Assembly (NCBI GenBank): GCA_964466455.1
Contig: CAYXNL010000004.1
Location: 1-58,720 of the forward strand
Source of the DNA: an uncultured Thiotrichaceae bacterium
Lineage (GTDB): Bacteria; Pseudomonadota; Gammaproteobacteria; SZUA-229
Length of the DNA stretch: 58,720 bases
Direction of reading: 5' to 3'
Each line of letters begins with the position of its first letter. Positions within the stretch are counted from its first letter, which is position 1. This document shows positions 1-58,720 of this stretch, piece after piece. Made by a program: the position numbers and the translations under genes. The notes below the pieces were generated by a model that saw only the letters and a list, made by a program, of their open reading frames with translations, made no database searches and had not been told where the DNA came from.

Positions 1-51
1 GAAGGTGGTCGCACAGTGGGTGCCGGTGTGGTATCTAAAATTATTGAGTAA
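1..51 (+). CDS. tuf: Elongation factor Tu, 3' end only (first tuf copy, truncated by window)
   Basis: Translates [16 protein letters not shown], identical to the end of the tuf at 15710-16900; followed by tRNA-Trp-secE-nusG (tufB-type context). Confidence 0.97.
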   Translation, partial: EGGRTVGAGVVSKIIE

Positions 52-138
52 TTAATTCTCTGTTTTGAGCTGTGCGCTGAAAACAGATTACTCAGATGAG
101 TGTATAGTGAAGAATATTTATTCTTCGCTTTCACGGTT

Positions 139-214
139 AGGCCAGTGGCTCAATTGGTAGAGCAGCGGTCTCCAAAACCGCAGGTTGGGGGTTCGAGTCC
201 CTCCTGGCCTGCCA
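139..214 (+). tRNA. trpT: tRNA-Trp (CCA)
   Basis: 76 nt. Acceptor stem AGGCCAG/CTGGCCT, anticodon arm GCGGT-CTCCAAA-ACCGC, T-loop GTTCGAG, encoded 3' CCA; canonical position between tuf and secE. Confidence 0.97.
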
Positions 215-237
215 TTATTAAGGCAGGTGGAAAATAA

Positions 238-618
238 ATGGTCTCCAGGACCGAAGAAGTTGTTTCAAATAAGCTGGACACAGTCAAGTTAGTACTGGCT
301 ATCCTGGTTCTTGTGCTGGGTATTGTCGGTTTCTATAAGTATGAGGCTGAGTCACTTTTATACCGTGTATTAGGGATCGTTACTGCGGCAGGTATTGCTC
401 TTGCTATTGCTTATACAACAAATATAGGGCAGGCAGTGGCTGGTTTTGCGCATGAAGCGAGAATGGAGGTTCGGAAAGTAGTATGGCCGACGCGACAGGA
501 AACCATTCAAACCACAATGATGGTTATTGCTGCTGTCGTTATTATTGGTCTATTTCTCTGGATTGTTGATATGATTTTAGCCAATGCCATTCATCTGTTA
601 ACCGGAATGGGAGCATAA
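238..618 (+). CDS. secE: Preprotein translocase subunit SecE (3-TM form)
   Basis: EVRKVVWPTRQET motif, three hydrophobic segments, upstream of nusG. Confidence 0.97.
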   Translation: MVSRTEEVVSNKLDTVKLVLAILVLVLGIVGFYKYEAESLLYRVLGIVTAAGIALAIAYTTNIGQAVAGFAHEARMEVRKVVWPTRQETIQTTMMVIAAVVIIGLFLWIVDMILANAIHLLTGMGA

Positions 619-621
619 ATC

Positions 622-1155
622 ATGGCAAAACACTGGTACGTGGTGCATGCGTATTCAAATTTTGAGGCGAAGGTAAAGGCATCACTGGAAGAACATATTC
701 GTCTTGCCGAGATGGAGGATAGCTTTGGTCAGATCCTGATACCAACGGAAGAAGTAGTGGAAATCAGAGATGGTGCCAAGCGTCGCTCTGAGCGTAAATT
801 TTTTCCGGGTTATGTTCTGGTTGAAATGGAAATGACGGACGAGACCTGGCATCTGGTAAAAGATGTACCGAAAGTTATGGGTTTTATCGGTGGTACAAAA
901 GATCAGCCCGCACCTATTACAGATAAAGAGGCAATGGCGATTGTTAACGCTATTGCGGAAGGTGTTGAAAAACCCAAGCCTAAAGTTCTGTATCAACCGG
1001 GCGAAGTAGTTCGAGTTACAGACGGCCCCTTTAACGACTTTAATGGCGTGGTTGAGGAAGTGGATTATGAACGAAATCGGCTTAAGGTGGCTGTATTGAT
1101 TTTTGGTCGTTCAACACCGGTGGAGCTGGAATTTAGTCAGGTTGAAAAGGGTTAA
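622..1155 (+). CDS. nusG: Transcription termination/antitermination factor NusG
   Basis: [11 protein letters not shown] start, [13 protein letters not shown] domain and [12 protein letters not shown]. Confidence 0.99.
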
Positions 1156-1228
1156 ACGAGTACCAGATTTTAAGTTTTTGAGTCTATAAAAATACGACTT
1201 AAAAGCTGTGGTTTTTTAAAATATAGAA

Positions 1229-1264
1229 TGGGGAGCCCGAAACTGAGTACGGCGTTTGCACCCG
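1229..1264 (+). promoter_or_regulatory. L1-binding translational operator of the rplK-rplA leader
   Basis: GGGGAGCC...GGCG...ACCC immediately before the rplK RBS resembles the E. coli L11-operon L1 target; not tested with a covariance model. Confidence 0.7.
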
Positions 1265-1274
1265 GGAGAGTAAG

Positions 1275-1709
1275 ATGGCGAAGAAAGTTGAAGCATATAT
1301 AAAATTGCAGGTACCTGCTGGTGCTGCAAATCCTAGTCCACCGGTTGGTCCTGCTCTGGGTCAGCACGGCGTGAATATTATGGAGTTCTGTAAGACGTTT
1401 AATGCTAAAACACAGGGCATTGAAAAAGATCTGCCGATCCCGGTTGTGATTACTGTTTATAGTGATAAAAGTTTTACCTTTATTACAAAAACACCACCGG
1501 CTTCAGTATTGTTGAGGAAGTCAGCCGGAATTGCCAAAGGTAGTGGTGAACCACATATCAATAAAGTGGGTAAAGTTAATCGTGCTCAGCTTGAAGATAT
1601 AGCAACGACTAAAATGCCTGATTTAACTGCAACAGATATGGATGCAGCCGTTCGCACGATTGCAGGTAGTGCGCGTAGTATGGGCATTGAAACAGAGGGT
1701 GTGAAATAA
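1275..1709 (+). CDS. rplK: 50S ribosomal protein L11
   Basis: [15 protein letters not shown] motif. Confidence 0.99.
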
Positions 1710-2404
1710 TGGCTAAGCTATCGAAGCGTGTGAAAGTAATCAACGAAAAAGTGGACAGAGATAAAGTTTATCCACTTGAAGAAGCGCTTTCCTTACTGAA
1801 AGAATTGTCCACAGTTAAATTTAACGAATCTGTTGATGTTAGTGTGAACCTGGGTGTTGACCCAAAGAAAAGTGATCAGGTTGTACGTGGTGCGACAGTG
1901 CTTCCAAATGGAAGCGGAAAAGAAGTACGTGTTGCAGTATTTACCGATGGTGATAACGTAAAAGCAGCACAGGAGGCCGGCGCAGATATTGTCGGTATGG
2001 ATGATCTCGCTGCTGAAGTTAAAAAAGGAAATCTAAATTTTGATGTGGTTATTGCATCGCCTGATGCAATGCGTGTTGTTGGTCAGTTAGGTCAGATACT
2101 TGGACCGCGTGGTTTAATGCCTAATCCAAAAGTAGGCACGGTAACACCAAATGTAGCGCAGGCAGTCAAAAATGCGAAATCCGGACAGGTGCGCTACCGC
2201 GTTGATAAAGCCGGTATTGTGCATGCATCGGTTGGTACGGTTAAGTTTGATGTGTCACAGTTAAAAGAAAATATTGACAGTCTGCTTGCCGATTTAATTA
2301 AGGCAAAACCAACAGCTGCAAAAGGTATTTATCTTAAAAAGATTTCTGTTTCAACAACGATGGGACCCGGTCTGGCAGTGGATCAGTCTGTTTATGCCAG
2401 TTAG
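1709..2404 (+). CDS. rplA: 50S ribosomal protein L1
   Basis: [23 protein letters not shown] motifs. Confidence 0.99.
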
Positions 2405-2421
2405 TTGTTGAGATGATGTAT

Positions 2422-2456
2422 TTGTTACTGCCTGGCAATTTACCAGGTAGTAATAA
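2422..2456 (+). terminator. Stem-loop after rplA (possible terminator/attenuator)
   Basis: TTGTTACTGCCTGG ... CCAGGTAGTAATAA pairs over about 14 bp with G-U pairs; no clean U-tract. Confidence 0.45.
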
Positions 2457-2482
2457 TAAATTTGACAGCCGAGCGATCGGTG

Positions 2483-2560
2483 TCGTCAGAGACCGTAGGT
2501 GCAGAGGCGTTTATATTAAATGCCACTGCTTAATGTCCTACGTAGATGGTGAATCTCTCA
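2483..2560 (+). promoter_or_regulatory. rplJ (L10/L12) leader RNA
   Basis: AGACCGTAGGTG...CTTAAT..CCTACGTAGATGGTG resembles the proteobacterial L10(L12)4-binding leader upstream of rplJ. Confidence 0.8.
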
Positions 2561-2648
2561 GGAGAGCACCGTGAGGATCATATATGTTGTATGGTCTGTA
2601 ATATCCGGTCGGGGTTGTAATGCTCCCGGCTTTAACTGGAGAGCTAAA

Positions 2649-3179
2649 GTGGCACTATGTCTTGAAGACAAGAAATCAATTGTTGCTGAGGTTTCTACAA
2701 TTGCCGCCAGTGCGCTTTCAGCAGTTGCTGCTGAATATCGAGGGTTAAGCGTTGATGAAATGACTGATTTACGTGTTAAAGCGCGTAATGAAGGTGTTTA
2801 TCTACGTGTTATCAAAAACACACTGGTAAAACGTGCAGTTGAAGGTACTGAGTTTGAGTGTATGCGTGATTCACTTGTGGGACCGCTGATTATGGCGTTT
2901 TCACAGGATGATCCCGGTGCAGCCGCTCGACTCGTGAATAACTTTTCAAAAGACAACGACAGGCTTGTCGCGAAGGTAATTGCAATTGGTGGCGAAATAC
3001 TGCCTGTTGAACAACTTGACACTCTGTCAAAATTACCGAACCGTGACCAGGCTCTGGCTATGTTAATGTCGGTAATGAAAGCACCGATCGAAAAATTTGT
3101 TCGCACCCTCAACGAGCCACACGCGAAACTGGTTCGTACTGTGGCGGCTGTGCGTGATCAAAAACAGGCCAATGCTTAG
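2649..3179 (+). CDS. rplJ: 50S ribosomal protein L10
   Basis: GTG start giving MALCLEDKK (cf. E. coli MALNLQDKQ) after GGAG; VIKNTL motif. The ORF track start at 2571 is an over-extension. Confidence 0.97.
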   Translation: MALCLEDKKSIVAEVSTIAASALSAVAAEYRGLSVDEMTDLRVKARNEGVYLRVIKNTLVKRAVEGTEFECMRDSLVGPLIMAFSQDDPGAAARLVNNFSKDNDRLVAKVIAIGGEILPVEQLDTLSKLPNRDQALAMLMSVMKAPIEKFVRTLNEPHAKLVRTVAAVRDQKQANA

Positions 3180-3261
3180 GCGGGCTTGATGTTCAGGCGG
3201 ACACGTAGTAACCAATACTACTTTATAATTTTAACTATATATTTTAAATCTGGAGAAAGTC

Positions 3262-3639
3262 ATGGCTGTTTCTAAAGATGATATTCTGGAAACTATTTCC
3301 AATATGTCTGTAATGGAAGTTGTAGATCTAATATCTGCAATGGAAGAAAAATTTGGTGTATCAGCGGCGGTTGCCGTTGCTGCAGCACCAGCTGCTGGTG
3401 ATGGTGGTGGTGAAGCTGCTGTTGTTAAAGATGAGTTTGATGTGGTATTAACTGGCTTTGGTGGCAACAAGGTTTCTGTTATTAAAGCGGTACGTGCAAT
3501 AACAGGGCTAGGTCTGAAAGAAGCAAAAAGTGCAGTAGAAGATACACCAACAACAGTTAAAGAAGCTGCAACAAAAGACGAAGCTGAAGATATTAAAAAG
3601 CAGCTTGAAGAAGCTGGCGCATCTGTCGAGCTTAAATAG
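3262..3639 (+). CDS. rplL: 50S ribosomal protein L7/L12
   Basis: [28 protein letters not shown]. Confidence 0.99.
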
Positions 3640-3672
3640 GCACTGCGCTGATTATCGTAATCAGCAACAGCT

Positions 3673-3723
3673 AAGGCTGGTGATTCTGTTCGCAGTCGAT
3701 GTGAACAGAATTAACCGGCCTTT
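3673..3723 (+). terminator. rplL-rpoB intergenic attenuator-like hairpin
   Basis: AAGGCTGGT-GATTCTGTTC ... GAACAGAATT-AACCGGCCTTT long stem ending in TTT, in the position of the known rpoBC attenuator. Confidence 0.7.
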
Positions 3724-3816
3724 GCCCGTTTCCGTTACAAACTTCTGATGGAAACTGCTGATAGAAAAGTTATTTATTAAACGTCTAACAAGACAAAGTT
3801 CACACGAGGAATACTG

Positions 3817-6800
3817 ATGGCATATTCATTTACCGAGAAAAAACGACTACGCAAGGATTTCGGTAAACGTCCACCTGTGTTGGATGTTCCCTATCTACTG
3901 TCCATGCAAATAGATTCATTCCGTTCTTTTTTGCAATCAGATAAAGCTCAGCAGAACCGTGAAGAAGCAGGTTTGCAGGGTGCGTTTAAATCAGTATTCC
4001 CAATTGTCAGTTATTCTGGTCATGTGAAGCTGCAATTTGTTCAATATAATTTGGGAAAACCGACTTTTGATGTAAAAGAATGTCAGTTACGTGGGATGAC
4101 CTACGCTGCCCCTTTGCGCGTCATTTTGCGACTGGAGATTTTTGATAAGGATAGCAAGAAAAAAACCACACCGAAAGAAGTAAAGGAACAGGAAGTTTAT
4201 ATGGGTGAAATGCCATTGATGACCGATAATGGTACTTTTGTTATTAATGGCACAGAACGTGTAATCGTTTCCCAGTTGCATCGTTCCCCTGGTGTTTTAT
4301 TCGATCATGACAAGGGTAAAACCCATTCCTCTGGAAAGATATTATATTCAGCGCGTGTCATTCCTTACCGCGGTTCATGGCTTGATTTCGAATTTGATCC
4401 AAAAGACAGTCTGTTCGTGCGTATCGACCGTCGTCGTAAGTTGCCTGCATCTATACTGCTGCGTGCGCTGGGCTATAATAACGAAGAGATTCTCGATATT
4501 TTCTTTGCTAGCGTTGAATATACATTTACCAAAAATGGTCTGAGTTTTGAGCTTTCTCCCGAGCGCCTGCGTGGGGAAACAGCCGGCTTTGATATTAAGG
4601 TTGGAAAAGACGTTATTATCGAATCAGGTCGTCGTATAACCATGCGACATATAAAACAACTGGAAAAGAAAAAAGTTACTACATTAAATGCGCCACTGGA
4701 TTACCTTGTCGGCAAGATTCTGGCACACGATCTGATCGATACAGAAACCGGTGAGGTCATGGTGCCGAGTAATACCGAATTCACTGAAGAATTGATTACC
4801 TTTGTACAGGAAAAAGGTATTAAAAGTGTACGTGTTATTTATACCAATGATCTGGATACAGGCCCATTCATTTCCAATACCTTGAATGTAGATAGCACAA
4901 CGACACAACTGGAAGCACAAATTGAAATCTATCGTATGATGCGCCCGGGGGAACCCCCAACAAAAGACGCGTCTGAAAATCTGTTTAATAACCTGTTTTT
5001 TTCTGAAGATCGTTATGATCTTTCTACCGTTGGACGGATGAAATTTAATCGTCGTTTACAACGTGATTCATCAGAAGGCCCCGGAATACTTTATGACTAC
5101 AAGCATTTTAATAAGAAGAAAGATGAAAAATCAAAGCAGCTAGTTGAAAATAATGCGGAGTCATCGGATATCCTGTCGGTGATGCTGGAGTTGATTAACA
5201 TCCGTAATGGTAAAGGTACGGTAGATGATATTGATCACCTCGGTAATCGTCGTATTCGATCTGTTGGTGAAATGGCTGAAAATGTTTTTCGTGTTGGTCT
5301 GGTGCGTGTTGAACGTGCCGTGAAGGAGCGTTTGACGACAGCTGAACAAGATGGTTTGATGCCGCAGGAATTAATCAATGCAAAACCGGTAGCTGCTGCG
5401 GTGAAAGAATTTTTTGGCTCCAGCCAGTTATCTCAGTTTATGGATCAGAATAACCCCCTGTCTGAGGTAACGCATAAACGTCGGATTTCTGCACTTGGAC
5501 CGGGCGGCCTTACCCGTGAACGTGCCGGTTTTGAAGTACGGGATGTACACCCGACACATTACGGTCGTGTCTGCCCGATTGAAACACCTGAAGGCCCGAA
5601 TATTGGTTTGATTAACTCACTGTCGGTCTATGCCTGCACTAATGAATATGGCTTCCTTGAAACGCCTTATCGCAAGGTTATTGATGGTGTGGCAACCAGT
5701 GAGATCGAATACCTGTCGGCAATTGAAGAAAGTAATTTTATTATTGCCCAGGCGAACGCTACCATGAATGACAATGGTAAATTGCTTGACGAACTGGTTT
5801 CCTGTCGCCACATGAATGAGTTCTCACTGGCCTCGCCGGGCGATGTGCAATATATGGATGTATCACCAAAACAGATTGTCTCGGTAGCCGCGTCCTTAAT
5901 TCCCTTTCTTGAACATAATGATGCGAATCGTGCGTTGATGGGGTCGAACATGCAACGCCAGGCGGTGCCGACCCTGCGTGCTGACAAACCACTGGTTGGT
6001 ACCGGTATGGAACGCGCGGTTGCGCATGATTCCGGTGCATCAGTGATAGCAAAACGTGGTGGAGTAATTGATTCGGTTGATGCTGCACGTATTGTTATTC
6101 GTGCACACAATGATGAGGCGGCTGACGGTGCAACTGGCGTTGATATCTATAATCTCACTAAATATACCCGTTCTAACCAGAATACCTGTATTAACCAGCG
6201 TCCGCTAGTACGAGTGGGTGATGTGGTACAACGGGGTGATATTATTGCTGATGGGCCTTCTACTGATATGGGAGAGCTGGCGCTGGGGCAGAATATGCTG
6301 ATTGCCTATATGACATGGAATGGCTATAACTTTGAAGATTCCATTATCATTTCTGAACGAGTGGTTGAAGAAGACCGTTATACGACTATCCATATTCAGG
6401 AACTGAGTAGTGTAGCGCGTGATACCAAGCTGGGCTCTGAGGAAATTACTGCCGACATACCAAATGTTAGTGAAGGTCTGTTGTCAAAACTGGACGAATC
6501 CGGCGTGGTTTATGTTGGCGCTGAAGTGAAACCGGGTGACATCCTGGTTGGTAAGGTAACACCGAAAGGTGAGACACAACTGACAGCGGAAGAAAAGCTG
6601 TTACGTGCCATTTTTGGTGAAAAAGCCTCTGATGTTAAAGATTCATCATTGCGTGTGCCAGCAAGTACTTTTGGTACCGTTATTGGGGTACAGGTGTTTA
6701 CCCGCGATGGCGTAGAAAAAGATAAACGGGCCATGGAAATCGAAGAACAGGAAATCGCATCAGTGAAGAAGGACGTGGATGCACAATGGCATATTATTGA

Positions 6801-8040: not shown

Positions 8041-11000
8041 ATGAAAGATTTACTTAAGCTCATCAAACAACAGGGTCAAAATGAAGATTTTGACGCGATT
8101 AAAATCAGTCTTGCATCGCCACAACAGGTGCTGTCATGGTCATTTGGTGAGGTAAAAAAACCTGAAACCATTAACTATCGTACCTTTAAACCGGAACGTG
8201 ACGGGCTTTTCTGTGCCAAAATTTTTGGCCCGGTAAAGGACTATGAGTGTTTATGTGGTAAATACAAACGGCTGAAGCATCGCGGTGTCGTGTGTGAAAA
8301 ATGTGGTGTTGAAGTTACCCAGTCTAAAGTACGCCGTGAACGAATGGGGCACATTGACCTGGCTAGTCCGGTTGCCCATATCTGGTATCTGAAGTCCCTG
8401 CCATCACGCATTGGTCTGCTGCTTGATATGACCCTGCGTGAAATTGAACGAATTTTATATTTTGAAGCCTTCGTTGTGATCGAGCCGGGTCTGACGACAC
8501 TGGAAAAAGGCCAGTTACTAACTGATGAAACCTATCTCGAAGCGATTGAAGAGCATGGGGATGAATTTGATGCACGGATGGGCGCAGAAGCAGTTCATGA
8601 AATGCTGAAAGCGCTGATACTGGAGGAGGAGGCCATTAAAATTCGTGAGGATATGGGGGCAACCAAGTCGGAGACCAAACTTAAACGCCTGGCCAAACGC
8701 CTGAAACTGGTTGAGTCATTTATTGCTTCCGGTAACCGTCCGGAATGGATGATTATGACCGTACTACCAGTTTTGCCACCTGATTTGCGCCCACTGGTAC
8801 CTCTCGATGGCGGTCGTTTTGCCACCTCTGATCTGAATGATTTATATCGTCGTGTGATTAATCGTAACAATCGCCTCAAGCGCCTGCTTGAGCTGTATGC
8901 ACCGGATATCATTGTACGTAATGAAAAACGTATGTTACAGGAATCAGTGGATGCATTGATGGATAACGGTCGTCGCGGACGTGCTATTACCGGTACTAAT
9001 AAGCGCCCGTTAAAATCCCTCGCGGATATGATTAAAGGCAAGCAAGGTCGCTTCCGTCAGAATCTGTTAGGTAAGCGTGTTGATTATTCCGGGCGTTCTG
9101 TCATTGTGGTTGGACCAACGCTTAAGTTGCATCAGTGCGGGCTGCCGAAAAAAATGTCACTGGAGCTGTTCAAGCCTTTTATCTTTAACAAATTGCTCCG
9201 CCGCGGACTGGCAACCACTATCAAAGCGGCAAAGAAAATGGTGGAAAAAGAAGGCCCGGAAGTCTGGGATATTCTTGAGGAAGTTATCCGCGAACACCCG
9301 GTTATGCTTAACCGTGCGCCTACTCTACACCGTCTGGGTATTCAGGCTTTTGAACCAATGCTGATTGAAGGCAAGGCCATTCAATTACATCCGTTAGTCT
9401 GTACCGCTTTCAATGCCGATTTTGACGGCGACCAGATGGCGGTACATATACCCCTGTCGATTGAAGCACAACTGGAAGCACGTACCCTGATGCTGGCAAC
9501 GAATAATATTCTATCACCGGCATCCGGTGAACCTATTATCGTCCCTTCACAGGATATCGTACTGGGTTTGTACTATATGACGCGTGAATCAATTAATGTT
9601 AAAGGTGAAGGTATGGTCTTTGCCGACATTGATGAAGTGTACTGTGCCTTTAATAATGATCAGGCGCATCTACAGGCTAAAGTTAAAGTACGTATTTGTG
9701 AACGGCTCTTCAATGATGACGGTGAACTGGAAGAGTGTTATAAAATTGTTGATACTACAGTTGGGCGTGCCATTCTGTCTGAAATACTGCCCGCTGGACT
9801 GCCCTATGAACTGGTGAATCAGAATCTGGATAAAAAAGCCATTTCTAATCTAATTAATTCCTGTTACCGCCAGGTAGGTTTGAAAGAAACCGTTATTTTT
9901 GCTGATCAATTGATGTACACCGGGTTTCGTTATTCAACCCGTGCCGGTATATCTATTTGTATCAGCGATATGGTTATTCCTGATGAGAAGGTACCGTTGT
10001 TATCAGCCGCCGAGGCAGAAGTGAAAGAGATTCAGAATCAGTATACCTCCGGTCTGCTTACCAACGGTGAACGTTATAACAAGGTGGTTGATATCTGGTC
10101 CCATGCAAATGAAGCGGTTGCCAAAGCAATGATGGACAAACTCAGCGTGGTTGAAGTGGAAGATGCTGAAGGAAATATTGTGAAGCAACCATCGTTTAAT
10201 AATATTTTTGTTATGGCAGATTCCGGTGCAAGGGGTTCGGCCGCTCAGATCAGGCAGCTTGCTGGTATGCGTGGTCTGATGGCCAAACCGGATGGTTCTA
10301 TTATCGAAACACCAATTACCGCCAATTTCCGTGAGGGACTGAACGTATTGCAGTATTTTATTTCTACTCACGGTGCCCGCAAAGGTCTGGCAGATACCGC
10401 ATTGAAAACTGCAAACTCCGGTTACCTGACACGTCGTCTGGTAGATGTTGCACAGGACATGGTTATTTTGAAGGAAGATTGTGCTACTGAAAAGGGAATG
10501 TTAATGCAGTCCATGATTGAAGGTGGTGATGTCATTATGCCACTGAGTGAACTGGTACTCGGTCGTGTGGTAGCAAGAGACGTACTAAATACCGATGATG
10601 AAGTGCTGATTCCACGTGACACACTACTCGATGAGCAGTGGGTTGAGCAGCTTGATGAGCTGGGTATTGATGAGATTTTTGTACGCTCGGTCATTACCTG
10701 TGAGAACCTGCATGGTGTCTGTTCCATGTGTTATGGCCGCGATCTGGCGCGGGGACATCGGGTTAATCACGGGGAGGCAGTAGGGGTTATCGCCGCACAG
10801 TCCATTGGTGAGCCGGGAACACAACTTACCATGCGTACCTTCCATATCGGTGGTGCTGCCAGCCGGTCTGCAGCAGCTAATAGTATCAGTGTGAAGACTA
10901 CCGGAATGATAAATCTGCATAATATTAAAGTGGTTAGACAAAATGCCGGTGGACTGGTTGCCGTATCACGATCCGGTGAGCTTGGCATCGTGGATGAGCA

Positions 11001-13549: not shown

Positions 13550-15655
13550 GTGGCTCGTACAACGCCAATCAGTCGCTATAGAAATATTGGCATTATGGCG
13601 CATATTGATGCCGGCAAAACGACAACCACAGAACGGATTCTTTACTACACTGGCATTTCTCATAAAATAGGTGAGGTTCATGATGGTGCCGCTACCATGG
13701 ACTGGATGGAACAGGAACAGGAGCGGGGTATTACGATTACTTCAGCAGCCACAACCTGTTTCTGGTCGGGCATGGAAAAGCAGTACGAACAGCACCGTAT
13801 CAATATTATTGATACGCCCGGACACGTTGATTTTACCATTGAGGTAGAGCGTTCATTGCGTGTTCTGGATGGAGCCTGTGCTGTATTCTGCGCTGTTGGT
13901 GGGGTTGAGCCGCAGTCGGAAACAGTGTGGCGCCAGGCAAATAAATATCATGTCCCACGGATGGTCTTTGTTAATAAAATGGATCGGGCCGGTGCGGATT
14001 TTCTGCGCGTTGTCGAACAGATAAAAGACCGTCTTGGCGCGAATTCTGTTGCGATGCAGGTTGCGATTGGTGCCGAAGAAAAATTTGAAGGGGTCGTTGA
14101 TCTCGTCAGAATGAAGGCGATTTACTGGAGTGAGGAAAACATGGGTTCGGTGTTTACCGAAACAGATGTTCCCGATGAATTGCAGGCCCTGTGTGAAGAA
14201 CGCCGTGAGCTGATGGTTGAAGCCGCCGCTGAGGCAAATGATGTATTAATGGGAAAATATCTGGAGACAGGTGATCTTGATGTGCAGGAAATTCGCCAGG
14301 GAATACGTGAACGTACACTGGCTAATGAAATTGTGCCGGCATTCTGTGGTTCTGCGTTTAAGAATAAAGGCGTGCAGGCAATGCTTGATGCCGTAATCGA
14401 CTATATGCCATCACCAGTAGATGTGCCACCAATAAAGGGCCATCTGGATGATAAAGATGAGACGGTAGCGGAGCGCCAGCCTGATGATAATGTTCCATTT
14501 GCTGCGCTGGGTTTTAAAATTGCGACAGATCCGTTTGTAGGGAACCTGACGTTTTTCAGGGTTTACTCTGGTGTGTTAAAATCGGGTGACACGGTTTATA
14601 ACCCGGTGAAAGGTAAAAAAGAACGTGTTGGTCGTATTGTGCAGATGCATGCGAACAGCCGTGAAGAAGTCTCAGAGGTTTGCGCTGGCGATATTGCGGC
14701 CGCGATTGGGCTCAGAGACATTACCACCGGTGACACCTTATGTGATCCGAAAGCGGTTATTACGCTGGAAAAGATGGATTTTCCCGATCCGGTTATTTCG
14801 GTTGCTGTAGAGCCGAAAACGAAAGCGGATCAGGAAAAAATGGGTGTTGCGCTGGGTAAGCTGGCACATGAGGATCCTTCGTTTCGTGTCTATACGGATG
14901 AAGAATCGGGACAGACCATTATTTCGGGCATGGGCGAGTTGCACCTTGAGATAATTATTGACCGGATGAGACGTGAGTTTAATGTAGAGGCTAACGTTGG
15001 TAATCCACAGGTTGCCTACCGTGAGGCAATTAGCCGAACGGTAGAGCATGAAGCCAAATTTATACGTCAGTCTGGTGGTAAGGGTCAATATGGGCATGTG
15101 TATCTGCGTTTAGAATCGCGAACACCAGGCGATGGTTATGAATTTGTCAACAAAATTGTTGGTGGCACCATACCAAAAGAGTTTATTCCTGCTGTTGATA
15201 AAGGTGTGCAGGATCAGATGAAAAATGGTGTGCTGGCAGGGTATCCGATTGAAGATGTTTGTGTGACTCTGTTTGATGGTTCGTATCATGATGTTGATTC
15301 GAGTGAGCTGGCGTTTAAAATTGCCGGTTCAATCTGTTTTAGAGAAGCGGCACTGGAGGCCGGTCCAAAGTTACTGGAACCGATAATGAAGGTCGAAGTG
15401 GTTACTCCAGGGGAATATATGGGCGATGTCATGGGTGACCTGAGCCGACGACGTGGTATTGTCAGCGGTATGGAAGACACTGTGTTGGGGAAGAATATTA
15501 GAGCGGACGTGCCGTTGTCAGAAATGTTTGGTTATGCAACAGCGTTGCGTTCGGCTACGCAGGGTCGGGCAACCTATTCAATGGAATTTGAAAAATATGC
15601 GCAGGCGCCAAAGGTCATTGCGGACGCGGTGATTAGTAGTAAAACAGGGTATTGA
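13550..15655 (+). CDS. fusA: Elongation factor G
   Basis: [35 protein letters not shown]; GTG start. Confidence 0.99.
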
Positions 15656-49511: not shown

Positions 49512-50642
49512 ATGAACATGAAGGTAGCTTTCAGCATGTCGATTAGAAAAATAACAAAATATTCTCTTCTCCTTTTCTCTTTTATCTCGATTGTTGCACA
49601 GGCTGACAGTGTTATCACGGTGGGTGTCGCGCCCCATGGTGGTTATGTCATTCTCGGTGGTAGTGTGATTCCGTTAAAAGAGGTCACTCTTTCGGCACAA
49701 ATGCCTGGTCGAGTGGTATCAATTGCCGGGGATGAAGGGGACAGGTTTAAAGCGGGTACGGTTTTGCTCAAGCTGAATAACGAAGATTTACTGGCAAAGA
49801 AAACGGCCGTTGAAGCGCAACTGGCCTCGGCGAAAGATGCGGTACAGAATGCACGGGTGCAATATAACCGGGAATTATGGAGCCCGCGTGTTTATAACCC
49901 TCGTCCAATGTCGGGGATGGCGATGCCTTCCATGTTTGACAGTTTTTTTAACAGGAATAGTTTTTTTGGTGGTAATGGCAATAAAAGCATCGAGCGACAT
50001 GCAGATCTTGTTGGCCAGGGTTCACAGGTTGTGGCAGCCCGTTCACGGGTACGTGAGGTCGAATCAAAGTTGCGCGAAGTTGATGCCAAGCTACGTGATA
50101 CCGTTGCCATCGCACCATTTGACGGTATTATTATGAAAAAACAGGTTGAAATTGGTGACACCGTTCAGCCGGGGCAGCCATTACTGATTTTTTCCTATAT
50201 AAAATTTCTGCGTATTCGTGCGGATGTTCCCGCACGTTTAATGCCGGGGCTTAGAAAAGGCATGATAGTTCCCGCTATGCTGGATGTGGGTAATACACAG
50301 GTTAATGTTCGTGTTGCGCAGATTTCACCGGTAGCAGATAAAACACGCCATACAGTGACCGTCAAGTTTGATTTACCCGAGGGTGTTCCCGGTGGTGTGG
50401 GTACTTATGCAGAAGTAATGATCCCTGATGTTAATTCACCTATGCGTGCTCTGCCGGTTGTCCCTAATGCTGCAATACAGAGGAACGGCAGCCTGCCTTC
50501 CGTCATGGTACTCAATCATAATAATAAACCGGAAATGCGCTTGATTCGTATTGGTGAAAAAGTGGGTGAGGATAGCGTTACCGTGCTTTCAGGTTTGAAA
50601 CCCGGTGAGCGGATCCTTGTTCATGGCCATAATGGACAATAG
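49512..50642 (+). CDS. RND periplasmic adaptor (HlyD/MFP family) with hairpin-tip insertion
   Basis: Split lipoyl motifs (SAQMPGRV...GDRFKAG and APFDGII..VEIGDTVQPGQPL), coiled coil, cleavable signal AQA-D; start may be 49536. Confidence 0.92.
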   Translation: MNMKVAFSMSIRKITKYSLLLFSFISIVAQADSVITVGVAPHGGYVILGGSVIPLKEVTLSAQMPGRVVSIAGDEGDRFKAGTVLLKLNNEDLLAKKTAVEAQLASAKDAVQNARVQYNRELWSPRVYNPRPMSGMAMPSMFDSFFNRNSFFGGNGNKSIERHADLVGQGSQVVAARSRVREVESKLREVDAKLRDTVAIAPFDGIIMKKQVEIGDTVQPGQPLLIFSYIKFLRIRADVPARLMPGLRKGMIVPAMLDVGNTQVNVRVAQISPVADKTRHTVTVKFDLPEGVPGGVGTYAEVMIPDVNSPMRALPVVPNAAIQRNGSLPSVMVLNHNNKPEMRLIRIGEKVGEDSVTVLSGLKPGERILVHGHNGQ

Positions 50643-53700: not shown

Positions 53701-54854
53701 CGGGTCACTGGTTACTGAATGCGAGCTTTACCGCCACATCCATGATTGGCTGGATTGCGCTATCCGGCATTATTGTGCGTAACTCAATATTACTGGTGGA
53801 TTTCACCCGCCATGAAGTACTGCGAGGTATTGATGTACGTGATGCGGTCATTAACGCATGCCGTGCCAGAACACGTCCCATTCTGATTACCGCACTGGCA
53901 CTGGTTGGCGGCTCCAGTGTTATTCTGACTGACCCGATCTTCCAGGGGATGGCTATTTCCTTACTGTTCGGTGTTATTGTTTCAACGATATTAACCCTGT
54001 TTATTATTCCGTTGGGTTGTATCTCGGCTAAAAATGCCTTTGCAGTTTGCCCCGCTGGTTCAGTAAAAGCAACGGTAGAAGAAGAATATATTGATAGCCT
54101 GGAGCCGCCCTCATGTGAGTACAAAACACCGGTGTGGATGAGTGTTTATAGCGCTGTTGTCAGCGTCGTGAACTGGATCTTTGTTATTGTGAAAATGTTT
54201 TATAACCTGGTGCGGCTGCTTATTAGCGTAATCAGGGAAAAGCTTACTTCCAGTCATGCAACACCACCAACCGAGCCTGGAACGCCCGGTTCTTCGTCAC
54301 CCACCCCGGTACCCCCCGCACCACCCGTACCCTCTACGCCTGCGGCTTCTACAGACGTGCATTCTACGGTTAAGACTAAGACTGCGGAGTCAGATGCATC
54401 GGCGACAGCGTCCGTAGCTGATTTGGCTACAGAAAAAACAGAATCTACGGATATAAATCAGGAGAAAATAGCTAAGCCAGGCGTTAACCATGAGGTTGTA
54501 AAAAAAGCAATGGTTAAGAAAGCAATGGTTAAGAAAGCAATGGTTAAAAAGGGAATTGTTAAGAAGGAAACGGTTAAGAAAAAGGAAGGTAAAACAGTAC
54601 CGAAAAAGAGTGTGGTGAAGAAAAAAATATCGGTGAAAACATTACCGGTAAAGAAAACAACAGGCGAGAATAGTCCAGTTAAAAAAGGCCGGCCTGAAAA
54701 AGTTCCAGGTAGAAAAATAACGGTTAAGAAAGTACCGGCTAAAAAATCACCATCAGGCAAACGTAGAGGCATCCGCTTAAAAGTTGATAACGATCAGATG
54801 CCTGATAACCATAAGTCTGATAACCATAAGTCTGATAAAGATAGTGGAGAATAA
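50757..54854 (+). CDS. RND permease (AcrB/AcrD/AcrF-like) with about 280-aa C-terminal extension
   Basis: TM4 GILVDDAIVVIENI, TM10 GIIVRNSILLVDF (Arg at the AcrB K940 position), TM11 RTRPILITA; 1365 aa. Confidence 0.93.
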   Translation: MTDNKEKKSLDVVEEKLKSVPGEPEAVEKEVHLGVAGNVARIFISSPLTPMLIILFILMGLAGIVFTPRQEDPQITVPMVDIFVRYPGASAQQVTALVAKPLERIMSEMSGVKHIYAAAQRDSAIVTVQFKVGQKMGPSLTKLYSKLNSNKDKMPPGVTSYIVKPKDINDVPGLTLTLWSNQVNDASLRLVALDVLQKLSEVPNSNQGFVVSGRTEQLRVEVLPEKLAGYGITLQQIANTIRQANSEESVGNIEAWDKSFKVYTGSFLRTAQDVENVVVGIKDGLPVYIRDVANVINGPSEVTKLVTQYTGPASKEKEVANGAQAVTIAIAKKKGSNGVSVYKALLAKVNAIKGVIIPDNVHVFVSRDYGVTANNKVNELIFKLFVATGIVTLLIWYALGWRPAVVVLIVIPIVILFTVFSAMILGQSINRVSLFALIFSIGILVDDAIVVIENIYRHWLIKGDMSEKVSIDAVREVGNPTILATFTVIAALLPMGAVRGMMGPYMLPIPILGTVAMLVSLFAAFAFTPWLANRLKPSMEQLRKSEEKEHRANDRLARFFRRMICPLVDNKKLGYGFLISLFVLFFASCAMFYTKAVSVKMLPLDNKAEFDIVINFPEGTSLIDTANLAATLAGEARKFKNVVALQSYVGTASPYDFNGLVRHYYLRDKPWQADIQVELTDKDKRDVTSHQIVEKMRKVMAPVAKAAGARIQMVEMPPGPPVLQSVVAIIYGPNAKTRRKFAHDMTLMFEKAPSITDVDNLMQDPYEIWRFEVDRDKALREGISVDAINQTLAMAVGGYRLGDIKRGSVVDPTYIVLQVPQSVRSEFSRLGTIPVQAANGALVPLSELGTFVKGIEQDVIYQKDLRNVEFVTGASAGKLAAPIYGMFQVDDMLKNYIAPDGVKVAHGFIHGGYFGPPANSRKSAFEWGGEWTVTYETFRDMGGAFLIAMVLIYMLVVVEFKNYIFASIIMAPIPLTLIGIIPGHWLLNASFTATSMIGWIALSGIIVRNSILLVDFTRHEVLRGIDVRDAVINACRARTRPILITALALVGGSSVILTDPIFQGMAISLLFGVIVSTILTLFIIPLGCISAKNAFAVCPAGSVKATVEEEYIDSLEPPSCEYKTPVWMSVYSAVVSVVNWIFVIVKMFYNLVRLLISVIREKLTSSHATPPTEPGTPGSSSPTPVPPAPPVPSTPAASTDVHSTVKTKTAESDASATASVADLATEKTESTDINQEKIAKPGVNHEVVKKAMVKKAMVKKAMVKKGIVKKETVKKKEGKTVPKKSVVKKKISVKTLPVKKTTGENSPVKKGRPEKVPGRKITVKKVPAKKSPSGKRRGIRLKVDNDQMPDNHKSDNHKSDKDSGE
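54498..54587 (+). repeat. 15-bp coding repeat, VKKxx pentapeptides in the RND tail
   Basis: VKKAM x3, VKKGI, VKKET, VKKKE. Confidence 0.95.
54802..54838 (+). repeat. 15-bp tandem repeat (DNHKS) at the RND C-terminus
   Basis: CTGATAACCATAAGT x2 plus CTGATAA. Confidence 0.9.
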
Positions 54855-55589: not shown

Positions 55590-56393
55590 TTGATGGGTAT
55601 ATCACGGTTTTTTTTGTTTTTTGTCGTATTTTTACTGTCACTAATGATGAACACTGCGGCAGTTGCGGGAGATCGTATTGCCGGACGTAGCGATCAGCGG
55701 ACTCGGCCATTGAATTCGGCAGAGTTTATTCTGGCGGCAACGGATAACCCATGGGTGCCGTCGCCAACACAACGGGCAGACGGCTTTCCTCATTACTATA
55801 ATGCAAAAAAAGATAACCCCTTCCAGCCTCAGCAAATGAACCGGTCACCGATTTATAACAGTAGAAATTCATCACATCCTTATTACAGATACCCGATGCA
55901 ACCACGTTATGTGACGCCAGCTATCCTGAAATCAATCAGAAAACAGCAAATGCGTGCACAGCAAATACTGCCATCATGGCAGCGATATCCATACCCATAC
56001 CAAAGATATCCATACCAAAAGCGTAATTACTGGCAATATAATCCATCACCTAACAGATATGGAAGAGGTGGTGATCGCGGCAATAGCCTTGGAAATAACC
56101 CTGGGAATAGCCCTGAAAATAGCCCCGAAAATAGCTATGGCAACTGGTCTGCGAACCCTGCATTACCGGTTAGTCCCGGTACCCTGCTGGATAAATCATT
56201 ATTAGATGGCAACGGGGGCTTGCCGCTTACCCCGGACATGACAGCAATAGAGGGTATTTCACCATTAAACGCCAATGAACCATTACCGCCTGAATTATCA
56301 GGGAATAATTATGACAGTTCGGGTCGTTATTTTGATCCCATGGCATTTAATCCCTCGTCAATGTTCGGTCCTTTTGATAATTTTGCGCGGTAG
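55590..56393 (+). CDS. Secreted Tyr/Pro/Asn/Gln/Arg-rich low-complexity protein
   Basis: Signal peptide ending AVA; QRYPYPYQRYPYQ; (G/E)NS(P/L/Y) repeats; 5 bp after the previous stop. Confidence 0.78.
   Translation: MMGISRFFLFFVVFLLSLMMNTAAVAGDRIAGRSDQRTRPLNSAEFILAATDNPWVPSPTQRADGFPHYYNAKKDNPFQPQQMNRSPIYNSRNSSHPYYRYPMQPRYVTPAILKSIRKQQMRAQQILPSWQRYPYPYQRYPYQKRNYWQYNPSPNRYGRGGDRGNSLGNNPGNSPENSPENSYGNWSANPALPVSPGTLLDKSLLDGNGGLPLTPDMTAIEGISPLNANEPLPPELSGNNYDSSGRYFDPMAFNPSSMFGPFDNFAR
56079..56138 (+). repeat. 12-bp coding repeat (GNSL GNNP GNSP ENSP ENSY)
   Basis: ggcaatagcctt ggaaataaccct gggaatagccct gaaaatagcccc gaaaatagctat. Confidence 0.9.
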
Positions 56394-57348: not shown

Positions 57349-58344
57349 ATGAAATTTTTTCGCTGGTTATTAAGTAATATATTATTAATTATTGTTGTGG
57401 TCGGACTGATCTATACCTATGTGTACTGGGGACATCTGACTGGCGCTGATACCCCGGGAGGGAGGGTAATTACCTATTTATCTGGTGAGTCAGGCTTCGT
57501 CCATAATTTTGTTAATGGGATTAAAGAAAAAAACAGCAATCGGGAAAAGCACTCACCGTCTAATCAGCATACTGCAACGCCGTCAGTGGCTTTACATGGG
57601 GAAAATAACTCAGATCATTCGATCACAACATCCGGCTCAGCACCAGACAATCATGCTACTCCGGAAAATGTTTCTGCCGGGAAGGTAACCGCTGAGGCAA
57701 AGGAAAAAGAAAAAGAAAATAACGTTAACGTTGTTTCACGACAGCCGCAGCAGAGTGATAATACCGGCAATGCTTCATCTGCTGTATTACCACCCAAAGA
57801 AGCCGCGCATAACGCTAATAGTACCCTGGCGCAACAACCGGTTGCTACAAAAGAAAAGAATACTATTCCCCGGAAAAAAGGTCTTTCACCTTCCGCTCAG
57901 GCAAAGGTAGAACCACAGAAACCTGAACAGCAAGGTCATTCTAAAATAGCCAGATCAGGTGTTTTTGTCAGTCCAGACGTTGAGTCCGCACTGGAAAAGG
58001 CCGGTGCTAAAGGGGAGGTGGCAACATTGACACCGACCGCAATACGTAAAGTCTGGATCGAAGCCAGAAAATCCTTTTATAAGCATGACTATATGCAATC
58101 AGAGAAGGACTATAAACGTGTTATAGCGGCGACAAAAAATAATTATGATGCCTATGGAGAACTGGGTAACGTTTATTTTTATCAGGGTAAAAATGATAAA
58201 GCCGCCGCCACTTACATGAAAGCTGCGCTTATAATGATAGATTCAGGGCAGAGTAACCGCGCGCGCAGCTTACTGGGCCTGATGCACTATCTCAGTAAGG
58301 ATAAAGCGAAATTGCTTGAGCAGAAACTTGAGGCAGCTCAATAA
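57349..58344 (+). CDS. Membrane-anchored protein with disordered linker and C-terminal TPR domain
   Basis: N-terminal TM (LLSNILLIIVVVGLIYTYVYW), long S/N/A/E/K-rich linker, TPR-like YDAYGELGNVYFYQGKNDKAA. Confidence 0.8.
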   Translation: MKFFRWLLSNILLIIVVVGLIYTYVYWGHLTGADTPGGRVITYLSGESGFVHNFVNGIKEKNSNREKHSPSNQHTATPSVALHGENNSDHSITTSGSAPDNHATPENVSAGKVTAEAKEKEKENNVNVVSRQPQQSDNTGNASSAVLPPKEAAHNANSTLAQQPVATKEKNTIPRKKGLSPSAQAKVEPQKPEQQGHSKIARSGVFVSPDVESALEKAGAKGEVATLTPTAIRKVWIEARKSFYKHDYMQSEKDYKRVIAATKNNYDAYGELGNVYFYQGKNDKAAATYMKAALIMIDSGQSNRARSLLGLMHYLSKDKAKLLEQKLEAAQ

Positions 58345-58437
58345 CAGACACTGTCCAGAGAGCTATAATGTTTCACGCGGTACGTAATTTATTTATACCT
58401 GATATTATGAAACGAGGCGCTGCTGGCGATTTTTAGT

Positions 58438-58720
58438 ATGACCGATAAAAAAATGACAGAATCAATAAAAGCCGAGTCAACCGATACCCCGGCTGAAAAA
58501 ACAACAGATACTGCCAACACCGTATCTAATGTAAAAACGGAGATAAAGGTAGAAAAAAAAGCGGAGGGTAAAAAAATCTCAGCGAAAAGATCGGTGGCTA
58601 AAGCATCGACAGCAGAGGCACCGTCTAAAAAGAAGGCGGTGAAGAAAGATCCCGTGAAAAAAGGCCCCGTGAAAAAAGGCCCGGTGAAGAAAGACGCAGT
58701 GAAGAAAGATGAGGTGAAGA
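58438..58720 (+). CDS. Lys-rich histone-H1-like protein with VKKxx repeats, truncated by window end (not in ORF track)
   Basis: Hand translation, open to the edge: MTDKKMTESIKAESTDTPAEK...SKKKAVKKDPVKKGPVKKGPVKKDAVKKDEVK. Confidence 0.8.
   Translation, partial: MTDKKMTESIKAESTDTPAEKTTDTANTVSNVKTEIKVEKKAEGKKISAKRSVAKASTAEAPSKKKAVKKDPVKKGPVKKGPVKKDAVKKDEVK
58639..58720 (+). repeat. 15-bp coding repeat, VKKxx pentapeptides
   Basis: gtgaagaaagatccc gtgaaaaaaggcccc gtgaaaaaaggcccg gtgaagaaagacgca gtgaagaaagatgag gtgaag. Confidence 0.95.

Follow-up and report, generated by a model that had tools for sequence, protein, structure and literature searches.

The open reading frame that starts at position 58438 of the window (the whole analysed stretch of DNA, 58,720 nucleotides long) carries a run of VKKxx pentapeptides resembling one in the C-terminal tail of an RND permease encoded upstream. 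The frame belongs to a real gene for a predicted bitopic protein, and the VKKxx run is a slippage-type repeat; the account that we hold to be probable, if not strongly so, is that its likeness to the RND tail arose by parallel expansion, and that the lysine-rich arm carrying it most likely contacts a polyanion. The carrier gene is more interesting than the repeat, being widespread, unnamed, very strongly conserved and predicted to encode a coiled coil of a "Met-zipper" kind.

A gene broken within its repeat

The window comprises positions 1-58720 of a 65,450-bp scaffold (C4:1-58720). In the plus frame opened by the ATG at 58438, no stop codon occurs up to 58720, the last base of the window, and the translation (MTDKKMTESIK...SKKKA-VKKDP-VKKGP-VKKGP-VKKDA-VKKDE-VK) contains the five pentads that the first-pass annotation had read there; direct reading and Tandem Repeats Finder both agree with it, including the 15-bp period found also in the RND tail. 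The window is followed by a scaffold gap of 100 N (C4 58721-58820), which lies inside the VKKxx repeat; what cuts the frame there is this gap and not a stop codon. Past the gap the frame reads VKKDA-VKKDE-VKKDT-VRKTAAEIKK... up to a stop codon whose last base is C4 59752; an immediate closure of the frame, which the same annotation had named as a possibility, is thus excluded, and the 391-aa protein is present in NCBI. The final 39 nt on the 5' side of the gap are identical to the initial 39 nt on its 3' side; therefore, the assembler broke within the repeat.

Joining the flanks through this 39-nt overlap gives a predicted protein of 391 aa, with a full array of VKKDP VKKGP VKKGP VKKDA VKKDE VKKDT followed by a degenerate VRKTA. 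The joined product has a letter-for-letter match in NCBI, encoded on a different contig of 46.9 kb (P0121), and because of this identity both the join and the six-unit array are independently confirmed. The exact DNA junction, searched for in metagenome contigs, gave no match. In the public annotation of the scaffold, only a product of 274 aa (P0122) is given for this gene; it is a fragment, because the assembly gap splits the gene, and the artefact is here corrected from a 274-aa fragment to a 391-aa gene broken in its repeat. The assembly contains 70 scaffold gaps, each of exactly 100 N, and others among them may likewise conceal repeats.

In the 93-nt spacer that follows the upstream TPR gene, the best sigma-70-like match of the region is located 69 nt upstream of the ATG. 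As a putative promoter it is suggestive at most, because the total of such sites in the region is not above the shuffle expectation. Antisense open reading frames at 58389-58718 on the minus strand were considered and rejected: they are mirror images of the repeat, and the homologues belong to the plus frame.

Protein architecture and family

With the post-gap part as query, 332 homologues were found at E<=1e-3, nearly all of them unnamed proteins of uncultured Gammaproteobacteria; the host range of the family is that of uncultured sulfur-type or sulfur-cycle members of this class. One homologue bears a precomputed PF28544 tag, and some are named "YoxC" or "methyl-accepting chemotaxis protein" by JGI. 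The first-pass annotation had looked to the rest of the gene for an identifiable C-terminal domain. The rest was retrieved, but no Pfam or NCBIfam model scored above its cut-off, the coiled-coil and DUF948 matches being sub-threshold, and a PDB profile search returned no related solved structure. Judged by its sequence, the host protein is a bitopic inner-membrane protein of no described family.

In an alignment of 25 members, a variable N-terminal region gives way to a core in which about 110 columns are invariant. Homologues share the start MTDKK. The core comprises a basic helix (LK.RA..A..RAQ.KIL), the element VSD..DPLERLA.TF..SA(R/K)RWE, whose invariant SA(R/K)RWE precedes the membrane segment, and the single transmembrane (TM) helix itself (MVVYPS.FAF.LLA.YGFFLIY). 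After it come about 90 Met-rich residues forming a near-invariant heptad coiled coil, an invariant GPFGMMND.MPF motif and a Pro-rich tail. In the post-TM heptads, 76% of the a/d positions are hydrophobic, against 16% elsewhere; Met accounts for 13 of the 25 a/d residues and for 17% of the segment. Neither the Met-at-a/d coiled coil nor the fixed RND-MFP association is described in the libraries searched.

The arm, about 85 residues long, contains about 20-25% Lys, its best 30-residue window holding 13 Lys, with KKxxx pentads in seven to eight units. An AF2 model of the sister-strain protein, built on a 25-sequence alignment, is of low confidence (mean pLDDT 51, pTM 0.18). In it, residues 1-84 (pLDDT 33-38) are without secondary structure, which corresponds to predicted disorder; a helix spans residues 87-125, and a single long helix (134-263) runs through the TM segment. 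Since the N-terminal side carries a net charge of +16 over residues 1-148, the positive-inside rule predicts a cytoplasmic arm and a periplasmic Met zipper, a topology that we infer from charge only.

Genomic context

The features of the locus are listed in Table 1. About 50 loci (distinct MAGs labelled Thiotrichaceae or Gammaproteobacteria) share one gene order: MFP, RND, one to three unknown secreted proteins, the ParF-like ATPase, the TPR gene, the 58438 gene and a dynamin-like GTPase, with PSD adjoining the cluster on the other strand. In these loci the 58438 gene stands two genes downstream of the ATPase, and the dynamin-like gene begins 10 nt past its stop codon. In Sedimenticola and Ectothiorhodospiraceae the order is MFP, RND, ParA and, directly downstream of ParA, the family gene; Piscirickettsiaceae/Methylophaga loci contain MFP, RND, TPR and the family gene, without ParA. 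Within the taxonomic family of the window, the gene occurs in its long or short form in 15 of 41 sampled genomes. Given this conserved synteny, the gene is regarded as a fixed accessory of the atypical RND-MFP module.

Table 1. Coordinates of features at the locus (window positions unless marked C4, the scaffold)
Feature	Position	Strand	Evidence or remark
Periplasmic adaptor (MFP) of RND	49512..50642	+	
Atypical RND permease, 1365 aa	50757..54854	+	Pfam ACR_tran 1e-137
RND-tail array: VKKAM x3, VKKGI, VKKET, VKKKE	54498..54587	+	separate 15-bp tandem repeat
ParF-like (type Ib) ParA/MinD-family ATPase, 209 aa	56646..57275	+	Pfam CbiA
Bitopic TPR protein, directly upstream of the 58438 gene	57349..58344	+	syntenic
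Sigma-70-like match, ATAACA-17-TATAAT	58341..58369	+	best in region; 10/12 matches
First 94 of 391 codons of the 58438 gene, encoding the lysine-rich arm (predicted disordered, probably cytoplasmic)	58438..58720	+	ORF calls, conserved MTDKK start
VKKxx 15-bp tandem repeat	58639-58720	+	Tandem Repeats Finder: 4.7 copies, 85% matches, score 86-94
Remaining codons of the 58438 gene, past the scaffold gap	C4 58821-59752 (= L001 3822-4753)		same frame

The RND permease matches generic multidrug-type profile models better than CusA, and its basic C-terminal tail, of about 270 aa, ends in RRGIRLK. Between its twelfth TM helix and the basic tail (residues ~1115-1160, window 54100-54230), an extra hydrophobic stretch, VWMSVYSAVVSVVNWIFVIVKMFYNLVRLLISVI, is present; if the lysine tail is cytoplasmic, this stretch has to form a hairpin or anchor the chain in the plane of the membrane. 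The NCBIfam model ParA_partition matches the ParF-like ATPase at 2e-39, below its cut-off.

Several further observations concern the neighbourhood. Short Met/Phe-rich periplasmic motifs are found in the hairpin-tip insert of the MFP (PSMFDSFFNRNSFFG, window 49863-49997), at the C-terminus of unkB (PSSMFGPFDNFAR, window 56300-56393) and in the invariant GPFGMMNDVMPF of the 58438 family (C4 ~59230-59290); PSMFDSFFNRNSFFG, PSSMFGPFDNFAR and GPFGMMNDVMPF are possible mutual docking elements for the Met zipper. The locus is also unusually rich in in-frame coding tandem repeats: SDNHK occurs 2.5 times at the very end of the RND (window 54802-54838; 15 bp, 100% matches), and the second secreted protein has a YPYPYQ repeat (15 bp) at 55991-56019 and an NSPE-type repeat (12 bp) at 56082-56135. 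In a 66%-identical relative (L003), a DUF302 gene (13768-14241) lies between the TPR gene and the family gene, and a PF04314 (LpqE-like/PCuAC-type) gene (9409-9999) lies just past PSD; the two give a faint copper-related hint beside a very Met-rich periplasmic protein.

Distribution of the RND tail and of the arm

The C-terminus of the RND was scored in 50 loci, 39 with ParA and 11 without. The tail is K-rich in 38 of the 39 ParA-positive loci and ends in RRGI[RQK]L in 34; among the 11 ParA-negative loci neither feature occurs, the K content being 2.5% or lower. The long lysine arm of the family tracks a clade, while the RND tail tracks ParA. In nine ParA-positive loci of the Sedimenticola type, the N-terminus of the family protein is 29-75 residues long, with 2-10% Lys, and mostly acidic, and the basic RND tail is kept; the family is present in at least 11 loci without ParA. 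The basic N-terminus is thus not phyletically coupled to the ATPase. Because the distributions differ, the RND tail and the arm are taken to be coupled to different things, which constrains any model of the system.

Short forms from the taxonomic family of the window (L096, L098-L103; G006-G008, G011, G015, G022, G023) have the arm replaced by a Cys-rich cytoplasmic module, VRDVIIESIECEPGI.GCTADPDTCPN.P..CDKKLSMFGYYDD (…CEPG..GCTADPDTCPN…CDKK…), preceded by a conserved basic peptide, PKKKIKS. This module may be a metal-binding domain. As the arm is missing in nine ParA-positive loci and gives place to the Cys-rich module in the short forms, it is not essential to the core function of the family.

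One complete-chromosome Thiotrichales MAG (L054/G001, CP070838.1) has no orthologous ParA, its best match being 28% identical. On the minus strand of its bases 2-3940 (L088), the orthologous RND is truncated within its tail by the beginning of the record, and the circular record was thus apparently opened in the tail repeat. The family gene of this genome is found 1.6 Mb away from that RND. As a single MAG with a truncated RND, it was given no weight as a test of an arm without ParA.

These distributions bear on the proposal that the arm docks on the ParF-like ATPase and stimulates it, the protein being an adaptor that links the envelope complex to a ParA gradient. The position of the gene relative to the ATPase in about 50 loci agrees with such a role, as does its conserved, basic and disordered N-terminus (MTDKK...), which is how partners of A/D ATPases have been described (PMC10241942); the Cys-rich short forms in ParA-positive loci, moreover, begin with basic PKKKIKSVRD. 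The proposal nevertheless has to accommodate family members in at least 11 ParA-less loci (Piscirickettsiaceae and others) and the short, mostly acidic N-termini of ParA-positive Sedimenticola-type orthologues. The RRGIRLK end of the RND tracks ParA far more tightly (34/39 vs 0/11) and is the stronger candidate. We consider docking of the arm rather unlikely; the phyletic test, in which the tail tracks ParA and the arm does not, favours the RND tail over the arm as the putative primary ParA partner element.

Variation of the arm among strains and relatives

In a comparison strain (L002, GCA_006240915.1), which is 99.3-99.6% identical over 14.5 kb, the gene is ungapped and encodes 376 aa, with an array of only VKKDA-VKKDE-VKKDT. 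It differs from the window by a clean in-frame indel of 45 nt, that is, three units, L002 having the fewer; the RND-tail array does not differ between them. Of the base changes that separate these strains, 5 non-synonymous and 2 synonymous ones fall in the arm, against 1 and 4 in the core; the numbers are small. A phase-variable contingency repeat was considered and rejected, the unit being 15 bp and the 45-nt strain difference staying in frame.

Among close relatives, the number and kind of units vary directly upstream of a conserved VKKTAAE(I/L). Some arrays consist of one to three units of [TAMV]VKK[ET]x, and others read KKKAA-KKPEV-KKTET-KKTES-KKPVV, KKTPL-KKSTD-KKPAV-KKPAV or KKAEP four times. 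Pentad runs of three or more are found in few of the loci L002-L055, with unrelated units, most members having no pentad run, and the arm keeps 12-23% Lys and about 70-185 residues in all scorable loci of this set. That lysine fraction and length are held despite sequence turnover indicates selection on composition. The conserved property appears, at the sequence level, to be lysine density and not the VKKxx motif, and selection would act on the charge and length of the arm. The VKKxx run is a slippage-type expansion of a unit beside the conserved VKKTAAE element; given the indel, the turnover of units and the steady Lys content, the array is a copy-number-variable repeat within a compositionally constrained arm.

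The same data could be read more simply, with the arm as a weakly constrained low-complexity spacer whose repeats reflect neutral slippage of AAG/AAA-rich DNA. The strain-level indel, the surplus of non-synonymous differences that the arm shows (5:2 vs 1:4 in the core), an arm sequence that is not alignable across the family and the absence of the arm from distant orthologues all fit this. Against it, 12-23% Lys over ~70-185 residues is kept in every scorable L002-L055 locus, and a purely neutral spacer is in our estimation unlikely.

VKKxx arrays and the lysine tracts of the genome

In the RND tail, Tandem Repeats Finder delimits the 15-bp array to 54504-54581 (5.2 copies, score 107). Val is encoded by GTG in 7 of 7 units of the 58438 gene and by GTT/GTA in the RND array, as the first-pass annotation had noted, and its conclusion that neither array is a DNA duplication of the other stands, similarity between units being limited to V-K-K coding. 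DNA homology between the arrays is rejected, since the need to encode V-K-K accounts for the identity that they show and their Val codons are systematically different. Within each array the units are homogeneous at the DNA level, as would be expected if the two had expanded in tandem independently.

When the whole assembly (2.27 Mb, 97.4% complete) was scanned in all six frames, three or more consecutive VKKxx units occurred in these two genes only; the motif is thus confined to the locus in the scan that the earlier annotation had proposed. About 15 open reading frames of the genome have strongly lysine-rich windows, and Val stands directly before KK in 24% of the cases from these tracts and in 30% of those from the RND tails of relatives. 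Because Val commonly precedes KK, two independent arrays of V-starting pentads are not improbable.

Proteins with appended lysine tracts, rich also in V/A/T, recur in this genome, the clear cases among the roughly 15 being TopA, an HU-like protein, a small H1-like protein, ribosomal protein S2 and a DEAD-box helicase. DNA topoisomerase I (TopA; C6:30916-33345) has a perfect (KKKxx)x6 C-terminal tail (C6:33220-33309; KKKVV KKKAA KKKIT KKKVA KKKTV KKKTA). C-terminal lysine repeats are characteristic of actinobacterial TopA (PMC5714199). Ribosomal protein S2 (C25:300-1220) has a C-terminal extension, first K-rich and then acidic, with VVKKAAVKKKASVKKK. The N-termini of an HU-like protein (C18:19766-20173) and of a small protein (C21:32966-33295) are K-rich, as is the tail of a DEAD-box helicase (C23:30773-32071), and a 132-aa H1-like protein is encoded at C43:6378-6776.

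From the shared pentads, the first-pass annotation had proposed selection on a common protein-level motif that ties both ends of the locus to one function. In its specific form, VKKxx would be selected in both proteins and read by one common partner or ligand. The restriction of strict (VKKxx)>=3 to two genes of a 97%-complete genome, their placement in a single conserved cluster and the [VI]KKxx pentads kept near the end of relatives' RND tails speak for it. They are, however, set against a unit number that differs between near-identical strains, unrelated pentads or none in relatives, distant ParA-positive orthologues that lack the arm while the RND tail persists, the frequency of V before KK (24-30% of lysine tracts) and a TopA with (KKKxx)6. 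Selection on the specific motif is accordingly not supported as the explanation of the likeness, in view of the unit indel, the sporadic and unrelated pentads, the arm-less orthologues and the common V-KK, and a single reader of both arrays is improbable. Of the link between the two ends, what survives is that both regions are H1-like, probably cytoplasmic and in the same cluster; the specific motif link does not.

Proposed explanation

In the account that we prefer, the likeness to the RND tail would be parallel evolution, because VKKxx is a strain-variable repeat in a generic lysine-rich arm: the shared V-K-K and the five-residue period are an outcome often to be expected when generic basic low-complexity sequence of the KKxxx type expands twice independently. 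Both the arm and the RND tail would most likely contact a polyanion on the cytoplasmic side of the membrane, nucleoid DNA being the most probable one. Nucleoid DNA is the matrix on which ParA-type ATPases normally work. It is favoured as the ligand because similar tracts in this genome sit on nucleic-acid-binding proteins and a ParA-type ATPase is encoded next door, because lysine repeats stabilise TopA-DNA complexes (PMC5714199), and because granules are held to the nucleoid by the PAKKA motifs of PhaM and the histone-like tail of PhaF (PMC9049629). Weak matches to the histone H1-like HC2 model also speak for a nucleic-acid link. ParA/MinD partners are recognised via a positively charged disordered N-terminus (PMC10241942), and the arm may also present such a basic disordered N-terminus to be read by ParA-type ATPases.

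Binding of the arm to anionic phospholipids of the inner leaflet, with membrane remodelling by the dynamin-like GTPase and PSD, draws on the dynamin-like gene 10 nt past the stop codon, syntenic across the long-arm clade, and on the adjacent PSD, but this is an argument from adjacency, the Sedimenticola-type dynamin-like gene lies ~8 kb off on the other strand, several short-form loci have none, and the other K-rich tracts of the genome sit on nucleic-acid proteins, so that we regard lipid binding as very doubtful.

An extension of the preferred account is that the arms of the RND pump and of the Met-zipper protein together couple the envelope RND/MFP complex to the nucleoid, with the ParF-like ATPase spacing it. 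We offer this tentatively and think it decidedly unlikely as it stands. If true, it would describe a ParA-positioned efflux-type machine, and repeat number would tune the length or avidity of the tether.

Comparison with known systems

The arm is closest in kind to the H1-like tails of PhaM (PAKKA), PhaF (C-terminus), actinobacterial TopA and chlamydial Hc2. These are disordered, with about 20-25% Lys together with A/V/P/T, and the arm is alike; both are often built of pentads of KK plus three small residues and appended to a protein with another main function. Known H1-like tails are non-specific DNA binders that anchor cargo on the nucleoid or increase processivity (PMC9049629, PMC5714199). 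Unlike them, the tract described here forms the N-terminus of a bitopic membrane protein whose other domain is predicted to be periplasmic, and its VKK[DG]x unit carries acidic residues and Gly-Pro, unlike PAKKA. The Pfam HC2 model (PF07382) scores 13 bits (E 0.11) on P0001 and 23.4 bits (E 7e-5) on the RND tail, both far below the cut-off of 40, and gives no match on the window fragment. By analogy, the repeat is another instance of a known bacterial histone-like lysine tract, with DNA binding as a putative activity.

Partners of ParA/MinD-type ATPases (ParG, ParB, McdB, MinE, TlpT) likewise have a basic disordered N-terminus and are encoded beside a small ParF-like ATPase (PMC10241942). The present family differs from them in that some lineages have it but no ATPase, and some that have the ATPase lack the arm. 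Proteins of the DUF948/YoxC type (PF06103) also combine a single TM helix with a long stretch of helical repeats after it, but Met-at-a/d heptads, GPFGMMND.MPF, a long cytoplasmic arm and an RND context are foreign to them; membership in DUF948 was rejected at 15.8-19.6 bits against a gathering threshold of 37.2. The Cu(I)/Ag(I) binders of RND systems (CusF, the CusB N-terminus, SilE/PcoE) are also periplasmic, Met-rich and associated with an MFP-RND pair. The Met zipper, in contrast to their exposed MxxM or His/Met sites, follows the strict 3-4 heptad of a coiled-coil core. A periplasmic Cu(I)/Ag(I) binder of the CusF, PcoE/SilE or CopC kind was rejected, with no match in Pfam, NCBIfam or PDB and the Mets at heptad a/d.

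Set beside these systems, the repeat is ordinary: a strain-variable H1-like lysine tract of the PhaM, PhaF and TopA kind. Its host gene always belongs with an atypical RND-MFP pair, and in most cases an orphan ParF-like ATPase and a dynamin-like GTPase are encoded there as well; this family and its surrounding system merit more attention than the VKKxx repeat.
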